From Nitrospinota bacterium (GTDB taxonomy: Bacteria > Nitrospinota > Nitrospinia > JACRGO01), in assembly GCA_016212295.1 (NCBI GenBank), contig JACRGO010000073.1:1-57760 (forward strand): a stretch of DNA of 57,760 bases. Direction: 5' to 3'. The translations under genes were made by a program, and so were the position numbers. The first letter of the stretch is position 1, and every line of letters starts with the position of its first letter. Under the pieces are notes generated by a model that was not told the origin of the DNA, made no database searches, and saw only the letters and a list, made by a program, of their open reading frames with translations. Positions 4,245 through 51,626 of the stretch are shown one piece after another.

Positions 4245-4262
4245 TCATTTTAAGATATAGAA

Positions 4263-4445
4263 CACGGCGCGGCTTCGACACAGCCAAAGGGAAAACAAAA
4301 TCCCAAATGACAAATAGCAAATTGCAAATAAATTACAAATTACAATTACGGAATGTCCAAAACAACTACATTTCCTTGTTTGTCATTTGTAATTTTGGTT
4401 ATTAAGATTTATTTGTTATTTGACAATTGAGGTTTGGAGTTTAAA
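4263..4445. repeat. Repeat family A, copy 2
   Basis: cacggcgcggcttcgacacagcc tail plus aaaacaaaatcccaaatgacaaatagcaaattgcaaataaa...tttatttgttatttg. Confidence 0.85.
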
Positions 4446-6282: not shown

Positions 6283-6294
6283 AAGTTTATAAGG

Positions 6295-6708
6295 CAAACA
6301 AAATCCCAAATGACAAATAGCAAATTACAAATAAATTACAATTACCAAATGTCCAAACAATTCCAGTAACCGTTCACGGGTTCAAGGTTCAGGGTTCCAG
6401 GTTTTAGAAAACCCTGTATCCATACGGATTTTCATTGAGCGGTGCTAAAAACAGGTAAACAGGCAGATCCAATGTGGAGCGCCCTAAAAATCCCTTGCAA
6501 CATAGCCGTGTTTCACGCACTTTCAACCCTGAACCCTGAACCCGTGAACGGATACCAATTCCATTTCCTTGTTTGTCATTTATAATTTTGGTTGTTGAGA
6601 TTTATTTGTTATTTGGCAATTGCGATTTGGAGTTTCATAACACTTTGTTATTTTTAACTTTAGATCACTTTAGTCACTTTTAATTTGGTTGCGGCGAAGC
6701 CGCGCCAT
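6295..6708. repeat. Repeat family A, copy 3, split by a family-B MITE
   Basis: Left half 6295-6365, right half 6556-6636, tail ggttgcggcgaagccgcgccatg at 6687-6709. Confidence 0.85.
6366..6555. mobile_element. MITE family B, copy 1 (190 bp, 12-bp TIR, 8-bp TSD)
   Basis: TIRs GTAACCGTTCAC / GTGAACGGATAC; direct repeat CAATTCCA at 6358-6365 and 6556-6563; interior homologous to 51380-51626. Confidence 0.9.
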
Positions 6709-9055: not shown

Positions 9056-9240
9056 GAACTTTGCGCCCTGAGGGCGGACTGCGAATAGAGCACTAAGCGG
9101 GCTTTGCCGCAACTACTTGTCTGTGTGCTGACACGCGCGGGCAGTAAAGAATTGACATCCCCCAGGCAAGGGGGGATCAAGGGGGGTGTGATTCATAGGT
9201 CTATTTGATCTTTAAAGATTAAAAAGGGAAATTCCTATAC
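9056..9240 (+). mobile_element. Family D element, copy 1 (hairpin end ... GGAAATTCCTATAC end) with partial CCCCC/GGGGG palindrome
   Basis: gaactttgCGCCCtgaGGGCGgact ... taaagaattgacatccccc ... ctatttgatctttaaagattaaaaagggaaattcctatac; homologous to 36231-36394. Left boundary uncertain (9056 or about 9131). Confidence 0.7.
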
Positions 9241-9268
9241 ATTTTAACCATCTCAAGGAGGAAATTTC

Positions 9269-9998: not shown

Positions 9999-10010
9999 CA
10001 TAGGAGATAG

Positions 10011-10073
10011 CCTCACACAAAGACACAAAGGCCACAAAGGAAAATCTTAGTGGCTTAGCGGCTTTGTGTGAGG
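10011..10073. repeat. Short imperfect palindrome with tandem CACAAAG units
   Basis: cctcacacaaagacacaaaggccacaaag...cttagtggcttagcggctttgtgtgagg. Confidence 0.7.
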
Positions 10074-10104
10074 AATTTTTTAAAATCAAAAGGCTATCAT
10101 TAAA

Positions 10105-10938
10105 ATGCCACAAACAATTAATTTTTTTCTTGTCACCCTTTTACTCATAGTATTTCTTCCAGCAGCGGCCCTCGGCGGCGCGTGGACCGAGAGGAAGGGA
10201 CGCGGATACAATAAACTCGCCTTCAACTACTATCACTCGGACAAAAATTACGACACGGCGGGCAATAAGGCGGACGCGCCTTTCAACGGCGATTTCAGGG
10301 ACGCCAACGTCTCCATTTACGCCGATTACGGAATCACGGACGAATTGACAGTCCTCCTCTCCGCCTTTTACAAGTCCATGCGCTACATGGACGATAACCT
10401 CACTGAACATACGGACGCTTTCGGCGACCCTGAACTAGCGCTTAAATATAAACTGGGCCAATACAAAAACCTTTTCGCCTCCTTTCAGGCAGGGGCGAAA
10501 TTTCCCGGCTTGTACGGCAAACGCGGCCCGCTCCCTTCTGGAAATCACCAAATCGACATAGAGCCAAGGCTCCTGCTGGGCGTTTCCCTCTATCCCATCA
10601 CCGGTTACCTCAACCTGGAGGCCGCTTACCGCTACAGGGCGGAGGAGCCCGCCGACGAATTCCGCTATCTCCTTGAGGCCGGCTACAGCTTCACCCAGGA
10701 CATAGGCGTCAGGTGCAAACTGGACATAATCGAAAGCGCAAGAAACGGGGCCGTCCTGGCGGTGGAGGGCATGAACAAGACCATCACCTATCAATACGAC
10801 CTCTACAGGGTTGAACTGTCAGGCATTTACAGGCTTGCCGGGGGCTGGAGCCTGGAACTCACCTGCAATCCCACCTTCCATGGAAAAAACACCTCTCACG
10901 GCACGGCGTATTCAATGGGACTGGTCTGGGTGTATTGA
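10105..10938 (+). CDS. Outer-membrane beta-barrel protein of unknown function
   Basis: Signal peptide then GAWT; alternating aromatic strands; C-terminal aromatic (VWVY). Confidence 0.7.
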   Translation: MPQTINFFLVTLLLIVFLPAAALGGAWTERKGRGYNKLAFNYYHSDKNYDTAGNKADAPFNGDFRDANVSIYADYGITDELTVLLSAFYKSMRYMDDNLTEHTDAFGDPELALKYKLGQYKNLFASFQAGAKFPGLYGKRGPLPSGNHQIDIEPRLLLGVSLYPITGYLNLEAAYRYRAEEPADEFRYLLEAGYSFTQDIGVRCKLDIIESARNGAVLAVEGMNKTITYQYDLYRVELSGIYRLAGGWSLELTCNPTFHGKNTSHGTAYSMGLVWVY

Positions 10939-13222: not shown

Positions 13223-13338
13223 GGAACCGGCCATCAAGCGTTGCGGCCATGCCGCGCACGCTTATTTATTTAATAAGGCTTTTTGGGGTTTGCCGGCTAT
13301 TTTAAAGGAAAGGACTTCGGATTAATCAATTCGCTAAG

Positions 13339-14763
13339 CTATGTTCTTTGAAATAGTTGCCCTACACTATAATTTTTAATTAATTTGGAAAAATATTGGT
13401 CTTTTTCCAGCTTAAGCCTCAGAGCAGGGTCTAAATCCACAGCTCTGTTCAGTTCCTCAATGGCCGATTGCTCTTCCCCTTTCACATAGTACGCCTTGGC
13501 GAGGTTATAGTGCAGGTTGGCGTCATCCGGTTTGAGTTTCATCGCCTTTAGGAAATTTTCTATTGCCTGGTCGAATTTTTCCTGCCGCCTGAGCGCTATG
13601 CCCATCTTGTTATAGAGGTGGGTGTGGTTCTCGTTCAAGGCAATGGCCTCGCCGAATATGCCCTCCGCTTCCGCGTCAAGATTGTACTTCAGACAGAAAT
13701 CGCCCATTAGAAGATACAGGAAGTTCTGGGTGGGGTTATACTCAAGGGCCTTCCTGTATATTTCCAGGGCTTTTTTGGGATTGTCCTGGGCCTCGAAAAC
13801 CTTGGCAAGGCCAAGATAGTTCTTTACGAATTTTTTATTCCGCTGTATTCCTTCCCTGAAGTAAAATCCGGCCTTTTCAAAATCCCCTTCATCCTGATAA
13901 AGCGCCCCTATATGGTATAGCACCTGGACATTGTCCGGTTCCAAATCCATGACTTTAAGGTAATTCTTTTTGGCCTCTTTGTAATTGCCCAATTGTTCGT
14001 ACGCTTTTCCCATGCCCTGGTGCGCCCTTGGGAAATTGGCCTCGAACTCCGTGATCTGCTTGAATATCCTGATTGCCTGGTCCACCTCGTTCATTTTCAA
14101 AAGAGTATTGGCCTTTTCCGCTAAATTAGCGGCGTTTTCGCCTCCCATCTTTAGGGCTCTATTGTAAAAAATAATGGCTTGGTCGAAAAGCCCCATTTCC
14201 TGAAGCATGTTTCCTTCCATAAGCAGCCTGGAAACTTCCCTATGCAGCAACGACTCTTCCGGCTTCTCCAGGACCTCCATGAGTTTTTGTCCGAAAGATA
14301 CCGGGTCGGATGGAAGAATTAAGAATTGAGAAGCGCCTGCCTTGCATGCCGAGATAATGATTTGCCTGTCAAATACTTTTTCCACGAAGATAAAGGGAAC
14401 CAATTTTTCTGAACCCGCGGTCAGGAGCATGTTCTTTACGATATGCAGTAATTGCAATCCTGTTTTGGTGGAAACGCTGCCGTCCAGGACTTTGAGGTTG
14501 CAAATAATGAGGTCTATATTTTCGGGGTTTTTTTTGATCTGGCTTATAACCACGGTGGAGGTATTGGAGGCCCTGATTTTATCGGGAGAAAAACCCAGGA
14601 TCTCCAAATAGCTTTTTATCGTATCGCGCGCGGCCGGATCGCCGCAGATGACGAAAATTCTTTTCTTGAGGAATTTCGAGACCTTCTCCCTGAGTTCCAC
14701 CAAGGATTTCTGCTGTTCCAAAAACTCCTGGACCTCGTCCTGCTGTTTATGCTTGCCTTTCAT
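13339..14763 (-). CDS. Atypical receiver-domain + TPR repeat protein
   Basis: Receiver-like fold (DLIICN, AGASQFLILP) lacking the phospho-Asp; about 8 TPRs (YNKMGIALRRQ, LHYNLAKAY). Confidence 0.8.
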   Translation of the reverse strand: MKGKHKQQDEVQEFLEQQKSLVELREKVSKFLKKRIFVICGDPAARDTIKSYLEILGFSPDKIRASNTSTVVISQIKKNPENIDLIICNLKVLDGSVSTKTGLQLLHIVKNMLLTAGSEKLVPFIFVEKVFDRQIIISACKAGASQFLILPSDPVSFGQKLMEVLEKPEESLLHREVSRLLMEGNMLQEMGLFDQAIIFYNRALKMGGENAANLAEKANTLLKMNEVDQAIRIFKQITEFEANFPRAHQGMGKAYEQLGNYKEAKKNYLKVMDLEPDNVQVLYHIGALYQDEGDFEKAGFYFREGIQRNKKFVKNYLGLAKVFEAQDNPKKALEIYRKALEYNPTQNFLYLLMGDFCLKYNLDAEAEGIFGEAIALNENHTHLYNKMGIALRRQEKFDQAIENFLKAMKLKPDDANLHYNLAKAYYVKGEEQSAIEELNRAVDLDPALRLKLEKDQYFSKLIKNYSVGQLFQRT

Positions 14764-14835
14764 TTACTTCCACCTGAATTTTTATAATTTTTTCAATAAA
14801 AGCAGCTATGTTTTTCCACCCCAAAATTATTTCTC

Positions 14836-14905
14836 TTTTTTCTCCTGGTTTCCCGGATTCCTTATAAATATTCGTATATTAGGAAGCCAGGAAAGCAGGA
14901 AAAAA
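14836..14905. repeat. Short palindrome with tandem (C)AGGAA units
   Basis: ttctcctggtttcccggattcctta ... taggaagccaggaaagcaggaaaa. Confidence 0.6.
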
Positions 14906-14969
14906 CTTTCTAAATGAAAAATACAGGCTTTATTTTAATAGTACCGCCAGCAATAATCATATCCAAAGG

Positions 14970-17366: not shown

Positions 17367-17628
17367 GCCCCTACTATACAACAGGCGGCGCATCCCGGCA
17401 AGGTTTTCGGTTATCCTCCGCATCTTGTAAGGGAGAAGGACTTAACGTCATGTGGTTAGCGCATGAGCAATTCAAGTTTTCATGGAAAGTACCGATCAAC
17501 ATTAGAGATGGGATTGTGAAAAGATTCTTGTGAAAAAACCTGCATGAGTGAGATAATTGCCATATCAATGAAAATCTACTATTAAAATTAAACTATAGTT
17601 TAACAATCGGAAAATGGAGGCCCCCACA

Positions 17629-20316
17629 ATGAAAAAGTATTCCTTTCGCGCTTTTGCTCTCATCCTTATAATTTTTTCTTTTGCCGGCGCAGGCTTTCCC
17701 AGCCGCGCCTTCGGCGCGGACGCCTTCACAGCCATGAATATTTCCGCTGGAAATTCTTTTACCCTTATCATTACCGATGGCGGGAAAGTCCTGGCCTGGG
17801 GGCGAAATTCCGAAGGCCAACTAGGGGACGGGACAAAGAAGACAAGTTTTTCTTCAGTGGAGGTGAAAAATCTTGCGGATGTGAGTTCCATTTCCGCTGG
17901 AGGAAAATTTTCCATGGCCCTGAAAAAGAACGGGACCGTATGGGTTTGGGGGGACAATACCTATGGCCAGTTGGGGGATGGAACCACGGAAATGAAGAAT
18001 AGCCCGGTCCAAGTGCCGGGCCTTTCTGATGTGATTGCTATTGACGCTGGAGGCGCGCATGCCCTTGCCCTGAAAAAAGACGGGACTCTTTGGGCCTGGG
18101 GACAAAATTCTTATGCCCAGTTGGGGAATGGGACCACTGAGCACAGCTCAAGCCCGGTGCAGATGCTGGGTCTTGCCAACATAAAGATAAAAGCCATTGG
18201 CGCAGGAGAGTACAATTCCTACGCCCTCACGGAAAGTGGCGATGTTTGGGCTGTGGGGAGGTACAATGACGGCGAATTGGGAAACGGCGCCATGAGGCAG
18301 GATGTTGGTGGTTTTTATGAAAGCGTCCCTGTACAGGCCAATATCTCCGGGGTAAAGGACTTTTCCGTTGGGGGCCAACACGTTCTCGCCTTGATGAATG
18401 ATTTAACCGTCTTCCAGTGGGGAAGAAACATCAGCCCTGATCCGGTCAAGGTGACAAACCTTTCCAAGGTAAAGGCCATTGCCGCCGGCGGCCTTCATTC
18501 CCTGGCTATAAAGCAGGATGGGACTCTTTGGGCCTGGGGAGACAACCAGTCCGGCCAGTTGGGGAACGGCGGATATGTGAAGCAGGATGAGCCTGTTCAG
18601 GTCAAGCAATCCAAGTCTCCTGAAACATTTTTTTCCAAGGCAGCCGCCATTGCGGGAGGCTGGCAGCATACTATTGCAATTGCGGGAAGCGGGGCCCTTT
18701 GGGCCTGGGGAGACAATCACGAAGGGGAGTTGGGGACAAAGCTTGAAAGTGGATACAACAGCACTTATCCAGTCTCCATAGGCTCCAAGGCTGGTACTGG
18801 AGGCGGAACGACCGGCGGAGGAGGAACAACCGGAGGAGGTACTAGCGGAGGCACTGGCGGTAGTGGTGGAACAAGCGGAGGGGGGACCAAGGGAGACTGC
18901 GCGAAAGGATCGGGAAAGACTGGCAATATTTTCCAGGACGTAGCCACTTCTATATGCGAAGGTCCAAAGGATAAAACCGTTACCCCAAGAGATAAAGAAA
19001 AACCCTGGAGCGGCGTGGGGGAAGACATTTATGAAAAGGAAGGAAAAAAGGGTGGGGGGGGAACGGGCGGGTCCACTGGAGGCGGGTCCACAGGTGGCGG
19101 CTCCACAAGTGGCGGCTCAGGAACTGGAGGCACAACCAGCGGCGGGTCAACGGGAGGTGGATCTGGCACGAGAGGGCCCGCCATCAGCGCCATTAAAGTC
19201 GCCGCAGGCCTTGGGCATACCGTTGCCCTTAAAAAGGACGGATCGGTTTGGGCATGGGGAAGCAATCGGTATGGCATGTTGGGGGTGGGGAAAGATGATT
19301 TAAAATTGGGCAAATATCAAAATTATAACTTTACAAGCGTCCCATCCAAGGTGATTAATCTTACAGATGTGGAAGACATCGCGGCCGGGCGTTACCATAC
19401 TATTGCCCTCCGGAAGGACGGCACGGTTTGGACTTGGGGATATAATACATTCGGCCAGCTTGGGGATGGGACCAACAATGACGGCAACAAGCCCGTCAAG
19501 GTGAAAAATCTTACGCAGGTGAAGGCCATAGCGGCCGGAGATTATTTCAGCCTGGCGCTTAAAAAGGACGGCACTGTTTGGGCCTGGGGAATAAACAAAG
19601 AGTCCCAATTGGGAACAGACGCTAAAATAACCGGCGATGGGAGCAATGTGCCGGTCCAGGTGGAAAACATTTCAAACGCCAAGGCCATTGCCGCTGGGGC
19701 CGCAACCGGTTTCGCCATCCTTGGTGACGGCTCCGTTTGGGGATGGGGCTATAATCGTTCCGGCGAGATAGGAAACGGAGAAAAATTAAAAAATGCACAG
19801 GCGCCTGTACAGGTTAAAAATGTTTCAAATGTGGGGTCCATCGCTGTGGGCGAAAGCTCTTCCCTTGCCCTCATGAAGGACGGGACTGTATGGGGATGGG
19901 GATGTTCCTCAGTGGTCACGAAATGCCAGTTTGATCCTTACCAATTGGATTTATCAGATCTTTCCAACGTGGCGGCCGTGGACGCCGGAGGCGCTCATGC
20001 ACTTATATTAAAAGATAACGGGACCGTTTACGCATGGGGAAGCGGCGTTTCCGGCCAGTTGGGGGATGGGAAACATGGGTGGATCGGACCAGGCAGAACG
20101 GCGCATGAAAGCGAGGTCCTCGAAAAAACGCAGGGCCTGGCGAACATTAAGGCCATAGCTTGCGGCTTGCAGCATTCACTGGCCATAAAACAGGATGGGA
20201 CCATTTGGGCGTGGGGGGACAACAATTCCGGCCAATGTGGAGTAGACCCGGTAAAACCGGGCCTTTCCACCAATGACAATGACGAACTTAAACCCGTTAA
20301 GGTGTATGGGCCATAG
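17629..20316 (+). CDS. Secreted RCC1/BLIP-II repeat protein with two propellers and Gly/Thr/Ser linkers
   Basis: GGAGG RBS, signal peptide, about 14 repeats of IAAG..HSLAL..DGTVWAWG.N..GQLG; two GGT/GGS tracts around a short two-Cys segment. Confidence 0.9.
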   Translation: MKKYSFRAFALILIIFSFAGAGFPSRAFGADAFTAMNISAGNSFTLIITDGGKVLAWGRNSEGQLGDGTKKTSFSSVEVKNLADVSSISAGGKFSMALKKNGTVWVWGDNTYGQLGDGTTEMKNSPVQVPGLSDVIAIDAGGAHALALKKDGTLWAWGQNSYAQLGNGTTEHSSSPVQMLGLANIKIKAIGAGEYNSYALTESGDVWAVGRYNDGELGNGAMRQDVGGFYESVPVQANISGVKDFSVGGQHVLALMNDLTVFQWGRNISPDPVKVTNLSKVKAIAAGGLHSLAIKQDGTLWAWGDNQSGQLGNGGYVKQDEPVQVKQSKSPETFFSKAAAIAGGWQHTIAIAGSGALWAWGDNHEGELGTKLESGYNSTYPVSIGSKAGTGGGTTGGGGTTGGGTSGGTGGSGGTSGGGTKGDCAKGSGKTGNIFQDVATSICEGPKDKTVTPRDKEKPWSGVGEDIYEKEGKKGGGGTGGSTGGGSTGGGSTSGGSGTGGTTSGGSTGGGSGTRGPAISAIKVAAGLGHTVALKKDGSVWAWGSNRYGMLGVGKDDLKLGKYQNYNFTSVPSKVINLTDVEDIAAGRYHTIALRKDGTVWTWGYNTFGQLGDGTNNDGNKPVKVKNLTQVKAIAAGDYFSLALKKDGTVWAWGINKESQLGTDAKITGDGSNVPVQVENISNAKAIAAGAATGFAILGDGSVWGWGYNRSGEIGNGEKLKNAQAPVQVKNVSNVGSIAVGESSSLALMKDGTVWGWGCSSVVTKCQFDPYQLDLSDLSNVAAVDAGGAHALILKDNGTVYAWGSGVSGQLGDGKHGWIGPGRTAHESEVLEKTQGLANIKAIACGLQHSLAIKQDGTIWAWGDNNSGQCGVDPVKPGLSTNDNDELKPVKVYGP

Positions 20317-20364
20317 GCGGCCACAACGGCCAATAGCCATTGGTCATTGACTGATAAAAAAACA

Positions 20365-20593
20365 GTAACAGCTCACGGGTGCCATGAAAAACCAGATAAA
20401 GCCTCATTAGCTATTTTTTTAAATCCCCCTTAATCCCCCTTGCAAGGGGGAATTAAAGCAGAGCCGATCTAGGGGAGTTATCCATTTTAGGGGCCTTTTC
20501 CGTATTCCCCCTTACCAAAGGGGGACCAGGGGGGATGCGGTTTCCCCTGCAATTGGGCGTGAAGCAGTTTTCCCTGACACCGTGAACTATTAC
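20365..20593. mobile_element. MITE family B, copy 2, carrying CCCCCT/AGGGGG palindromes
   Basis: TIRs GTAACAGCTCAC / GTGAACTATTAC; flanks A7CA and A8CA (TSD with homopolymer slip). Confidence 0.75.
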
Positions 20594-29469: not shown

Positions 29470-29487
29470 CGTCTTTTAAAAAAAATC

Positions 29488-29735
29488 GTAACTATTCAGC
29501 GAAATGTTATATAACCACGATAGTCGCCGTTAAATGCCTTTTTACATCCCCCTCAATCCCCCTTTGTTAAGGGGGAATGAATGGGTTGTGCCGTCCATCG
29601 TGGTATATTTCCCATACATCGCCTGATTCCCCCTTGTAAAAGGGGGCCAGGGGGATGTAAAAAGGCCGAAGGCTCATTTAACTATAAAAATTCAGTTTTA
29701 AGAAAGACAAAAATAAAAACACACTGAATAGTTAC
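29488..29735. mobile_element. MITE family B, copy 3, carrying CCCCCT/AGGGGG palindromes
   Basis: Perfect TIRs GTAACTATTCAG / CTGAATAGTTAC; 8-bp TSD AAAAAATC (29480-29487 and 29736-29743). Confidence 0.9.
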
Positions 29736-29869
29736 AAAAAATCAACTGTTAACGGTTATAAAAAATAATCCCTGTTGTTGATAAATTTCCCTAAGTATAC
29801 CGGAAAATTATACCAATTATATATAAAAAATCAATAATTTTTTAATAATTTTAATAAATAAGCTACTAA

Positions 29870-30724: not shown

Positions 30725-30781
30725 GGGGCAATCTTATCAAAATTCGGCCGGAGAGAAAAGGTTGTTGGGAAAGCAAACTGC

Positions 30782-31148
30782 AATTATAAATTACGAATTA
30801 CGAATTACGAATTGGCATATTGGTGTCCTTTTGTGGTTTTCTGAATAGATGCGATAATGCGACAGAGTTCTTCGGCATCGGCGTGGATGCTCTCGAATTC
30901 GGATTGAGTCAGGTAATTGGTATCCTTTAGGAGGCGGAGCCAGTAGGAAGTTTCACGGGCTTCTTTGTAGGCGATGGACATTTTTGAAACAAAGTCGGCG
31001 CGAGATTGTCCACCGATGGCCTCTTCAACGTTCGCACCGATGCTTGTTCCGCACCGCGAACGCATAGCTCTTGGCCTGAATAACATTATCAGCCTTCACC
31101 CCATTTCCTCCCAACTATTCGTAATTCGTAATTTTTAATTCCTAATTG
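30782..31148. repeat. Inverted tandem AATTACG/CGTAATT heptamer arrays bracketing the four-helix-bundle gene
   Basis: (aattacg)n at 30782-30813; (attcgta)n at 31117-31148. Confidence 0.85.
30805..31099 (-). pseudogene. Four-helix-bundle protein (IVS-protein/bAvd-like) with internal deletion and frameshift
   Basis: GTG 31099 gives MKADNVIQAKSYAFAVR; another frame gives CGTSIGANVEEAIGGQSRADF...KEARETSYWL; the usual ~20 residues between them are missing. Confidence 0.8.
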
Positions 31149-31275
31149 CTTCCAGCACTTCCGGCATTCTCATTCTTCTCCAGTTGGTCCTGGCTTGGTG
31201 TTTGGTTTGGTATTATAATATCACCAAACGTATTGATACACGGAAAATTTATTTTGGTCGCGGCCCTATCTCGCT

Positions 31276-32116: not shown

Positions 32117-32317
32117 AGCCAAAAATATTTGAAATTTTCAAAAAAGGCGCAATGTTTTTTCACGGTTGGAGATACTTGCTCGCCTATTCCGAAAATTTAT
32201 CTCTTTTTGCCATAAAACGTTTCACTTTTTGCCGCCTTTTTGAAATTTCAAATATTTTTGGCTCATTGCCGAAATGAAATGTGCGCGATAAATTCTCAGA
32301 ATAGGCGAGTAAGTATC
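32117..32317. repeat. Two interleaved inverted-repeat pairs (A-B-A'-B')
   Basis: A 32117-32149 / A' 32233-32263; B 32171-32201 / B' 32287-32317 (28/31 match). Confidence 0.85.
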
Positions 32318-32491
32318 CAAATCTCAATTGTCAAATAACAAATAAACCCCAATAACCAAAATTACAAATGACAAACAAGGGAATGGAATTGTTTTGGACA
32401 TTCGGTAATTGCAATTTGTAATTTATTTGTAATTTGCTATTTGTCATTTGGGATTTTTTTTCACTTTTGCTTGCGGCGAAGCCGCGCAATG
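32318..32491. repeat. Repeat family A, copy 5
   Basis: caaatctcaattgtcaaataacaaataaa...atttgtcatttgggatttt plus tail gcttgcggcgaagccgcgc. Confidence 0.85.
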
Positions 32492-32527
32492 TCATCCGTG
32501 TTCCACTAAAAATAGAATCCCAACGCC

Positions 32528-36230: not shown

Positions 36231-36394
36231 GAACTTAACGCCCTTCGGGCGGACTTTAAAGAATTGACATCCCCCTAGCCCCCTTTTTTAAGGGGGAATA
36301 TCTCAAAAATTCCCCCCTGGCAAGGGGGGATCAAGGGGGGTGTGCTTCATGTATCTATTTGATTTTAAAAGATTAAAAATGGAAATTCCTATAC
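36231..36394 (+). mobile_element. Family D element, copy 2, carrying CCCCCT/AGGGGG palindromes
   Basis: gaacttaaCGCCCttcGGGCGgactttaaagaattgacatc ... atttgattttaaaagattaaaaatggaaattcctatac. Confidence 0.75.
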
Positions 36395-36410
36395 GTTTTA
36401 AATATTTTTT

Positions 36411-51379: not shown

Positions 51380-51626
51380 GTAACCGTTCACGGTTTCAGG
51401 TTCAGGGTTCCAGGTTTTAGAAAACCCTGTATCCACGCTTATCTCCAAAACCCGCTTACCTATATGGATTTTCATTGAGCGCTGCTAAAAACAGGTTAAC
51501 CAACAGGTTCAATGTGGAGCGCCCTAAAAAAACCTTGTTGGGGCGAATAATCATTCGCCCTTACATTGCCGTGTTTGACGATCTTTCAACCCTGAACCCT
51601 GAACCTTAGACCCCGTGAACGGTTAC
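51380..51626. mobile_element. MITE family B, copy 4, no TSD, with an internal REP-like hairpin
   Basis: Perfect TIRs GTAACCGTTCAC / GTGAACGGTTAC; interior matches 6366-6555 plus inserts including gttggggcgaataatcattcgccctta (about 51537-51563). Confidence 0.88.

Follow-up and report, generated by a model that had tools for sequence, protein, structure and literature searches.

What are the short GTAAC-ended repeats that lie between the genes of Nitrospinota bacterium contig JACRGO010000073.1, and what moved them there? The stretch analysed (57,760 nt; hereafter the window) corresponds to contig C15 in a draft genome of 3.74 Mb (GCA_016212295.1, here G000) with 237 contigs, 49.7% G+C, and a completeness of 90.5%. 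An earlier note, made from the letters of the window, had described four copies of one non-autonomous DDE-type element with terminal inverted repeats (TIRs) of about 12 bp and 8-bp target duplications, and had regarded the element as a chassis with interchangeable cargo. The present analysis indicates that the four copies are gene-less MITEs (transposable elements of the miniature inverted-repeat type), very probably mobilised in trans by an IS66-family DDE transposase, namely one of the ISBst12 group of insertion sequences (ISs) with a single open reading frame (ORF).

All four copies were found at the positions reported for them. Copy 1 (6366..6555, subfamily B1) has the ends GTAACCGTTCAC... 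and ...GTGAACGGATAC and arms of GGTTCAG-type heptamers. Copy 2 (20365..20593, subfamily B2) is diverged, with the ends GTAACAGCTCAC and GTAATAGTTCAC, and copy 3 (29488..29735, subfamily B3) has GTAACTATTCAG at both ends; each of these two contains an inverted pair of CCCCCT/AGGGGG hairpins (G5/C5 modules). Copy 4 (51380..51626), with GTAACCGTTCAC at both ends, represents a longer B1 type (c4 type) of which the genome holds four copies; besides GGTTCAG-type heptamers, it contains an extra hairpin, GGGCGAATAATCATTCGCCC (51540..51560), which resembles repetitive extragenic palindromic (REP) sequences and belongs to a separate repeat family. The interiors therefore agreed with their earlier description. 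Copies 3 and 4 have 12-nt ends that are perfect inverted repeats. Copy 1 starts with GTAACCGTTCACGGGTTCAAGGTTCAGGGTT and closes with the reverse complement of a nearly identical 31 nt, so that its inverted repeat extends over 31 nt (arms 6366-6396 and 6525-6555, 94% complementary) and exceeds the length of about 12 bp given in the earlier note. The elements are 190-248 bp long, carry no transposase gene, and lie in all four cases between ORFs. Folded as single-stranded DNA, copies 1 and 3 form long hairpins (z of -7.3 for copy 1 and -8.0 for copy 3). A scan of the whole window with Rfam at the gathering score gave no match, and the promoter sites predicted near copy 3 (4, compared with an expectation of 2.2) were uninformative. 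The 8-bp duplications reported for copies 1 and 3 are both perfect, with CAATTCCA at 6358..6365 and 6556..6563 around copy 1, and AAAAAATC at 29480..29487 and 29736..29743 around copy 3. The flanks of copy 2, on which the earlier note was silent, are AAAAAACA and AAAAAAAA and agree in register at seven of eight positions.

Transposition was examined further by means of empty sites, which the earlier note had proposed to look for. Copy 1 interrupts a hairpin repeat of heptamer words (family A; 6291..6635, with halves at 6291-6357 and 6564-6635). Two intact siblings of this repeat are present at 32316..32492, a paralogous empty site, and at 4262..4438. When aligned to the copy 1 locus (32305-32475 on the reverse strand and 4285-4445, respectively), both run uninterrupted through the insertion site and have the target only once, which confirms the claim that copy 1 splits a family-A repeat. 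The genes flanking copy 3 are kept in the same-genus genome G001 at 69% DNA identity, with a 341-bp spacer lacking the B3 element between them; beside the gene start, G001 (contig C350) reads GAAAAAAGAG where G000 has the element between two copies of AAAAAATC. Sequencing runs X2 and X3 from another study, which were compared as assembled contigs, contain a relative that is about 94% identical; a further run, X4, yielded almost nothing. In a contig of X3, position 20317 is joined to 20605 with 27 other letters, indicating that copy 2 is absent from the orthologous site of this relative. Empty sites were thus obtained for copy 1 as a paralogue and for copies 2 and 3 in relatives.

The ends are abundant throughout the genome. 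Exact GTAACCGTTCAC and GTAACTATTCAG occur 51 and 48 times in G000 (about 0.45 expected for each), and the reversed patterns, used as a control, did not occur there at all. When one mismatch was tolerated, 50 inverted pairs were spaced at most 450 bp apart, and another 110 ends had no partner; many of these single ends lie about 138 nt from a contig end, so that contigs evidently terminate within the repeats. A degenerate form of the motif, GTAACnnnTCA(C/G), was found 157 times, and clustering of the 28 nt behind it gave at least eight subfamilies, all starting with GTAAC. Target duplications were scored for the 30 pairs in which either end fits the strict motif and the spacing is 60-450 bp (29 of them evaluable); the genome-wide pairs span 105-275 bp. 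Fourteen of the 29 had a perfect 8-bp duplication, two matched at 7/8, three at 6/8, and ten at 5/8 or less, compared with 2.1% perfect when the right flanks were shuffled among the elements. Exact duplications with a length of 7, 9, 10, or 11 bp were absent from the 29 pairs. Including that of copy 1, the 15 perfect duplications have an A+T content of 85% (the genome has 50% G+C), with a tendency towards A on the left side and towards T on the right. A genome in which the other copies lack duplications and no empty alleles exist, the outcome named in the earlier note as speaking against transposition, is therefore not what was found.

The view of the four copies as one family did not survive this comparison. 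The window holds three subfamilies, B1 (copies 1 and 4), B2 (copy 2), and B3 (copy 3), whose bodies are unrelated. In pairwise comparison, copies 1 and 2 have just their 16-nt ends in common, no significant similarity was detected between copies 1 and 3, and copies 2 and 3 match in their G5/C5 modules only. The terminal 12-16 nt (GTAACCGTTCAC or GTAACTATTCAG) is the sole part common to the subfamilies. Among full-length copies (contig-end fragments and degenerate copies were left out), the median pairwise identity was 95.3% for B3 (11 copies aligned, maximum 99.1%), 85.3% for B2 (13 copies, maximum 93.0%), and 85.6% for B1 (11 copies, maximum 98.8%). The high identity within B3, together with the contig breaks in copies, suggests recent activity as far as the sequences can tell. 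The sister genome G001 has a 146-bp MITE of its own (G001:C277:1430-1575) with GTAACTATTCAGC ends and no clear duplication at that copy; its inner sequence matches a fourth subfamily of G000 (C1:599, C49:1484, C93:6604, and C232:3280). A long-range pair on contig C138 (60059-63211, 3153 bp) was rejected as a chance pairing of a one-mismatch motif with a 111-bp MITE.

The origin of the ends was indicated by relatives. A search of these genomes with the Pfam IS66 model detected a 96-aa C-terminal remnant of a transposase in G004, the stop codon of which lies 4 nt from GTAACTATTCAGCGAA, the exact first 16 nt of B3. Of the 179 relatives that this fragment retrieved from public genomes, 80 were retained, with coding regions that continue into ...CTGA(A/G)(T/C)AGTTAC. 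Thirteen full-length elements of 1477-1737 bp with GTAACT(A/G)(T/C)TCAG-type ends were delimited, 8 of which have perfect 8-bp duplications. A single ORF of 472-516 aa was present in each of the ten full-length elements checked; this check left out L037, L041, L043, and L048, and took in L016, which has no left flank. The single-ORF elements with these ends are L020, L024, L027, L032, L044, L047, L059, L069, and L073. Four of the ORFs were scanned (L020, L027, L044, and L073), and all of them matched NF033517 (transpos_IS66) with 284-299 bits (cut-off 180), as well as Pfam DDE_Tnp_IS66 (PF03050) and DUF6444; zf-IS66 matched in two of the four, in one case (23.1 bits) below the Pfam cut-off. 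In metagenomes, 45 of 80 loci had both ends 1350-1900 bp apart, mostly GTAACTATTCAG. The agreement between these ISs and the window elements is exact for the ends of B3, and the nearest match to the ends of B1 and B2 has one mismatch. Because the ends match those of transposase-bearing ISs, the duplications are 8 bp long, and ISDge4 offers a parallel (see below), the ends can be assigned to the IS66 family, single-ORF ISBst12 group. Taken together with the paralogous and orthologous empty sites, these findings bear out the notion of a truly transposed, non-autonomous DDE-type element. Two metagenome-assembled genome contigs of Candidatus Kuenenia (L018 and L031) carry elements of 1068 and 1194 bp with GTATCTATTCAGCG ends in which just the 3' portion of a transposase gene is left; to judge from this, they seem to have arisen by internal deletion and to represent a stage between IS and MITE.

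Members of the ISBst12 group are 1350-1900 bp long, with GTAA ends and 8-9 bp repeats. The window elements resemble them in having ends that start with GTAAC and continue ..TCAGC and in their 8-bp repeats, but are only 190-248 bp long, lack a transposase, and have bodies unrelated to the IS interior. For ISDge4 of this group, an excerpt of the published description gives GTGACTACTCAGCA and GTAACTGCTCAGCA as the TIRs, one transposase of 449 aa, and a direct repeat of 8 bp (PMC12898284). GTAA-type ends and 8-bp direct repeats are likewise ascribed to the IS66 family in an excerpt of PMC11946415, and some IS66 members have, according to an excerpt of PMC12888890, the inverted repeat GTAACCGTCCGGGCA, whose first 8 nt are common with the B1/B2 end. 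The canonical IS66 elements with tnpA, tnpB, and tnpC agree in the type of ends and in the length of the direct repeats, but they have GTAAGCG... ends, a length of 2-3 kb, and accessory genes, and the partner elements described above leave no room for tnpA or tnpB. Other bacterial MITEs, such as MITEPsy1/2 of Pseudomonas syringae and the Cardinium MITE, are similarly short, non-coding, multicopy, and intergenic with TIRs and duplications, but in the excerpted accounts they are associated with different IS families or with no IS family at all (PMC3189936, PMC9769881). A report linking a MITE to IS66 ends was not found in a search limited to the open-access literature, as far as its excerpts go.

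Several observations weigh against mobilisation by an ISBst12-type transposase. Copy 4 lacks a target duplication, its flanks AAAAAATC and ACCACCAG agreeing at two of eight positions, and 13 of the 29 strict pairs have no good duplication (6/8 or less). Perfect duplications were present in only 8 of the 42 evaluable metagenome loci with both ends, which may reflect chimeric assembly across repeats. An intact ISBst12-type transposase was not found in G000 by tblastn with 10 full-length transposases, which returned just a remnant on contig C10 and a fusion protein on contig C81 that is about 20% identical; nor were the ends of the IS of G001 found in G000. Among 120 genomes of the class, one had a transposase match at E<=1e-20, namely the remnant in G004. 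A full-length IS with exact GTAACCGTTCAC was not found among 80 genome and 80 metagenome loci. The MITE bodies have no similarity to the IS interior, so that descent by internal deletion is not demonstrated. Finally, the joints in X2 and X3 that skip exactly 6358-6555 have sides of just 25-33 nt inside a repeat; because such joints may come from paralogues, these joints were not counted as evidence for an empty copy 1 site.

Traces of a partner nevertheless exist in G000 and its relatives. The remnant on C10 (2963-3100) comprises 46 aa that share 74% identity with the fragment from G004, and a decayed end comes after it. In G001, the final ~42 aa of the transposase lead into GCTGAATA(G/A)TTAC at four contig ends, and the left end GTAACTATTCAGCG with the start of the ORF is present at four contig ends, indicating a multicopy IS collapsed by the assembler in the sister species. 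The partner in G000 itself may be unassembled or lost, given that this genome is 90.5% complete and divided into 237 contigs. The TIR-flanked transposase that the earlier note had suggested searching for was therefore not present in intact form in the draft assembly of G000, but IS ends and transposase fragments were obtained in G001 and G004.

On this basis, the transposase would recognise the terminal 12-16 nt (GTAACnnnTCAs) at both ends and insert the element into AT-rich intergenic DNA, leaving a target duplication of 8 bp. The hairpins and arrays of heptamers inside the elements would be other small repeats of the genome that joined a founder before the founder multiplied. The ends, their duplications, the empty sites, the copy numbers, and the agreement of the ends with those of transposase-bearing ISs were observed as such; we infer the mobilisation in trans, the identity of the transposase that handles GTAACCGTTCAC ends, and whether capture preceded amplification.

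The distribution of the interior sequences bears on this order. The G5/C5 module has 62 sites in G000, 46 in B2/B3-like MITEs and 16 outside; the REP-like hairpin of copy 4 has about 17 sites, 4 in the four c4-type B1 copies and about 13 outside; and of 113 GGTTCAG-type arrays, 50 adjoin a MITE end and 63 lie outside, although some of the latter adjoin degenerate ends. When copy 3 was compared with relatives, only its G5/C5 hairpin parts matched (query ~57-102 and 136-177), which indicates that this module is a separate, widespread repeat. In another subfamily (e.g. C96:6916-7020), the ends are joined directly to CACAAAG-type heptamers. The interiors are thus independently dispersed repeats, yet they are constant within each subfamily, which argues for capture or nesting before amplification and not for interchange. 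The suggestion that the interiors derive from other repeats was accordingly correct, but their free exchange was not borne out. The nested G5/C5 doublets, like the hairpin GGGCGAAT...ATTCGCCC, have the appearance of REP doublets and may belong to that class (REP/REPIN elements, which have RAYT transposases), whereas the outer element, with TIRs and 8-bp duplications, does not. An 89-nt direct repeat (9159-9247 and 36313-36401, 90% identical) starting with the G5/C5-type hairpin CCCCCnGGCAAGGGGGGATCAAGGGGGG shows the same hairpin class outside MITEs.

The same ends also bound a gene in relatives. G014 contains a 447-bp element (G014:C98:6556-7002) with GTAACCGTTCAC ends and heptamer arms, the only ORF of which is a gene for a 23S rRNA intervening sequence (IVS) protein, broken by a stop (PF05635, 78.9 bits), and a decayed 432-bp copy of this cassette is present in G002:C38. 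Homologous cassettes of G000 (C8:4115-4544 and C208:11641-12072) are 74-75% identical with decayed ends, although their genes look full-length (the ORF on C8 has 118 aa and scores 118.9 bits); a small derivative at C120:5108-5192 keeps the 3' end of the IVS gene. In mobile insertion cassettes of the MIC231 type, IS ends enclose a passenger gene but no transposase. The unit of G014 is comparable to these in its GTAACCGTTCAC ends around an IVS gene, but differs in IS family and passenger, and the cassettes of G000 differ further in their decayed ends. The possibility that B1 and B2 are gutted IVS cassettes was rejected, since blastn and tblastx similarity was limited to the terminal ~44 nt. In G000, the 300 nt around each of the 18 gene sites with PF05635 lack a strict GTAACnnnTCAs end. 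An IVS-type ORF lies in the window (30805-31086, minus strand; 93 aa, PF05635 71.8 bits), flanked by inverted arms of 33-35 nt with AATTACG-type heptamers (30771-31151).

Several other explanations of the elements were weighed against these results. A modular chassis that repeatedly swaps its interior by recombination or nested insertion would account for the same ends around at least eight different bodies, for the independent dispersal of the G5/C5 module, the REP-like hairpin, and the GGTTCAG arrays, for the gene cassette in relatives, and for the fact that B2 and B3 carry the G5/C5 pair at equal offsets despite their unrelated arms. Ongoing exchange is nonetheless unlikely: the B3 interior is constant across full-length copies, the extra hairpin is common to all four c4-type B1 copies, no near-identical pair of copies differing by cargo alone was seen, and subfamilies with only 12-16 nt in common have nothing to keep, so that the common chassis shrinks to these terminal bases. 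The idea survives in a looser sense, in that the same ends frame a transposase gene, the IVS-gene cassette, and at least eight non-coding bodies. A somewhat more doubtful extension is that in this lineage the ends serve as general mobilisation handles amplifying any small repeat or gene they enclose, such as the G5/C5 doublets, the REP-like hairpins, and the gene for the 23S-IVS four-helix bundle, with arrays of heptamer words as possible by-products of the ends. In B1 and the IVS cassette, heptamers run in phase from the inner word of the end (GTAAC/CGTTCAC/GGTTnnn/GGTTnnn), and the arrays could thus arise by slippage or repair at a transposon end and then spread.

More weight, though still somewhat less than even, is given to the alternative that B1 and B2, with GTAACCGTTCAC ends, are moved by a second lineage of IS66-family transposases, distinct from the mover of B3 with its GTAACTATTCAG ends. 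The two types of ends differ at 3 of 12 positions, and the subfamilies that carry a given type show it with high conservation. The 16-mer GTAACCGTTCACGGTT is restricted to 8 of the 120 class genomes, from three families, and bounds in G014 the 447-bp gene cassette instead of a transposase. ISs with GTAACCATTCAC ends (L196 and L198) form, at 1.82 kb, a distinct length class. However, neither PF03050 nor a full-length query detected a transposase of such a lineage in G000, G001, G002, G004, G008, G012, or G014. GTAACCGTTCAC is also enriched in G004 (59 occurrences), G012 (60), G014 (8), and G001 (26), yet the only collapsed multicopy IS of G001 has the B3-type end. Similar variation also occurs between the two ends of single elements, as in L209 (GTAACTATTCAG and GTAACCATTCAG) and ISDge4. 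The B1/B2 variant is within the natural range of the group: full-length elements with GTAACTGTTCAC (L073, L082, and L083) and those with GTAACCATTCAC are each one base from GTAACCGTTCAC. The fusion protein on C81 is a very improbable mover. This single-copy 706-aa ORF (C81:8655-10775; L001 1372-3492, minus strand) consists of the C-terminal half of a TM0106-type RecB-like nuclease fused to an IS66-type DDE domain (RNase_H_2, 76.9 bits; TIGR03491, 132 bits; NF033517, 195.6 bits with a cut-off of 180), and may be a domesticated transposase. It is the one match to the Pfam IS66 DDE model in G000 and the sole intact IS66-type DDE protein of this genome, and has a counterpart in G001:C44 within a 925-aa open frame. 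As a resident mobilising enzyme, it is disfavoured by its low identity to ISBst12-type transposases, by the lack of a GTAAC-type end within about 4 kb, and by the lack of a convincing inverted repeat around the ORF; it was rejected as the partner, since nothing ties the fusion to these ends. Least credible of all is the view that a tyrosine (HUH) enzyme spread the elements as hairpin repeats, either REP/REPIN-like or of the IS200/IS605 type, to which the long hairpin folds, the REP-like modules inside the elements, and a genome full of hairpin repeats might point. It is refuted by the duplications, which are of a fixed length of 8 bp; the ends are identical to those of ISs bearing a DDE transposase, and HUH-type elements (IS200/IS605, REPINs) are not known to have target duplications or TIRs.

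The assignment of the ends to the ISBst12 group thus identifies a transposase family for a large fraction of the repeats between the genes of an uncultured groundwater bacterium. A single set of IS66-type ends is used by many non-coding bodies that are unrelated to one another and, in relatives, by a small cassette with the enigmatic IVS gene as well. The result also explains why assemblies into many contigs break about 138 nt inside the repeats, and it supplies annotation with a search key, namely GTAACnnnTCAs ends with an 8-bp duplication. As selfish DNA, the elements are of an ordinary type; they add a new, well-documented case to a kind already known, and knowledge of how MITEs work is unchanged.

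Other features of the window were noted in passing. The relative in X2 and X3 lacks or replaces 14787-14931, 13258-13372, 10002-10162, and 9088-9241, which are not GTAAC-type repeats; the segment 14787-14931 is a very high-copy hairpin repeat with a depth of up to 6096 in X3. A 900-aa ORF at 17614-20316 contains many internal repeats of about 150 nt coding for units ending in a GGxxxxGQLG-like motif, and may encode an RCC1-type repeat protein.

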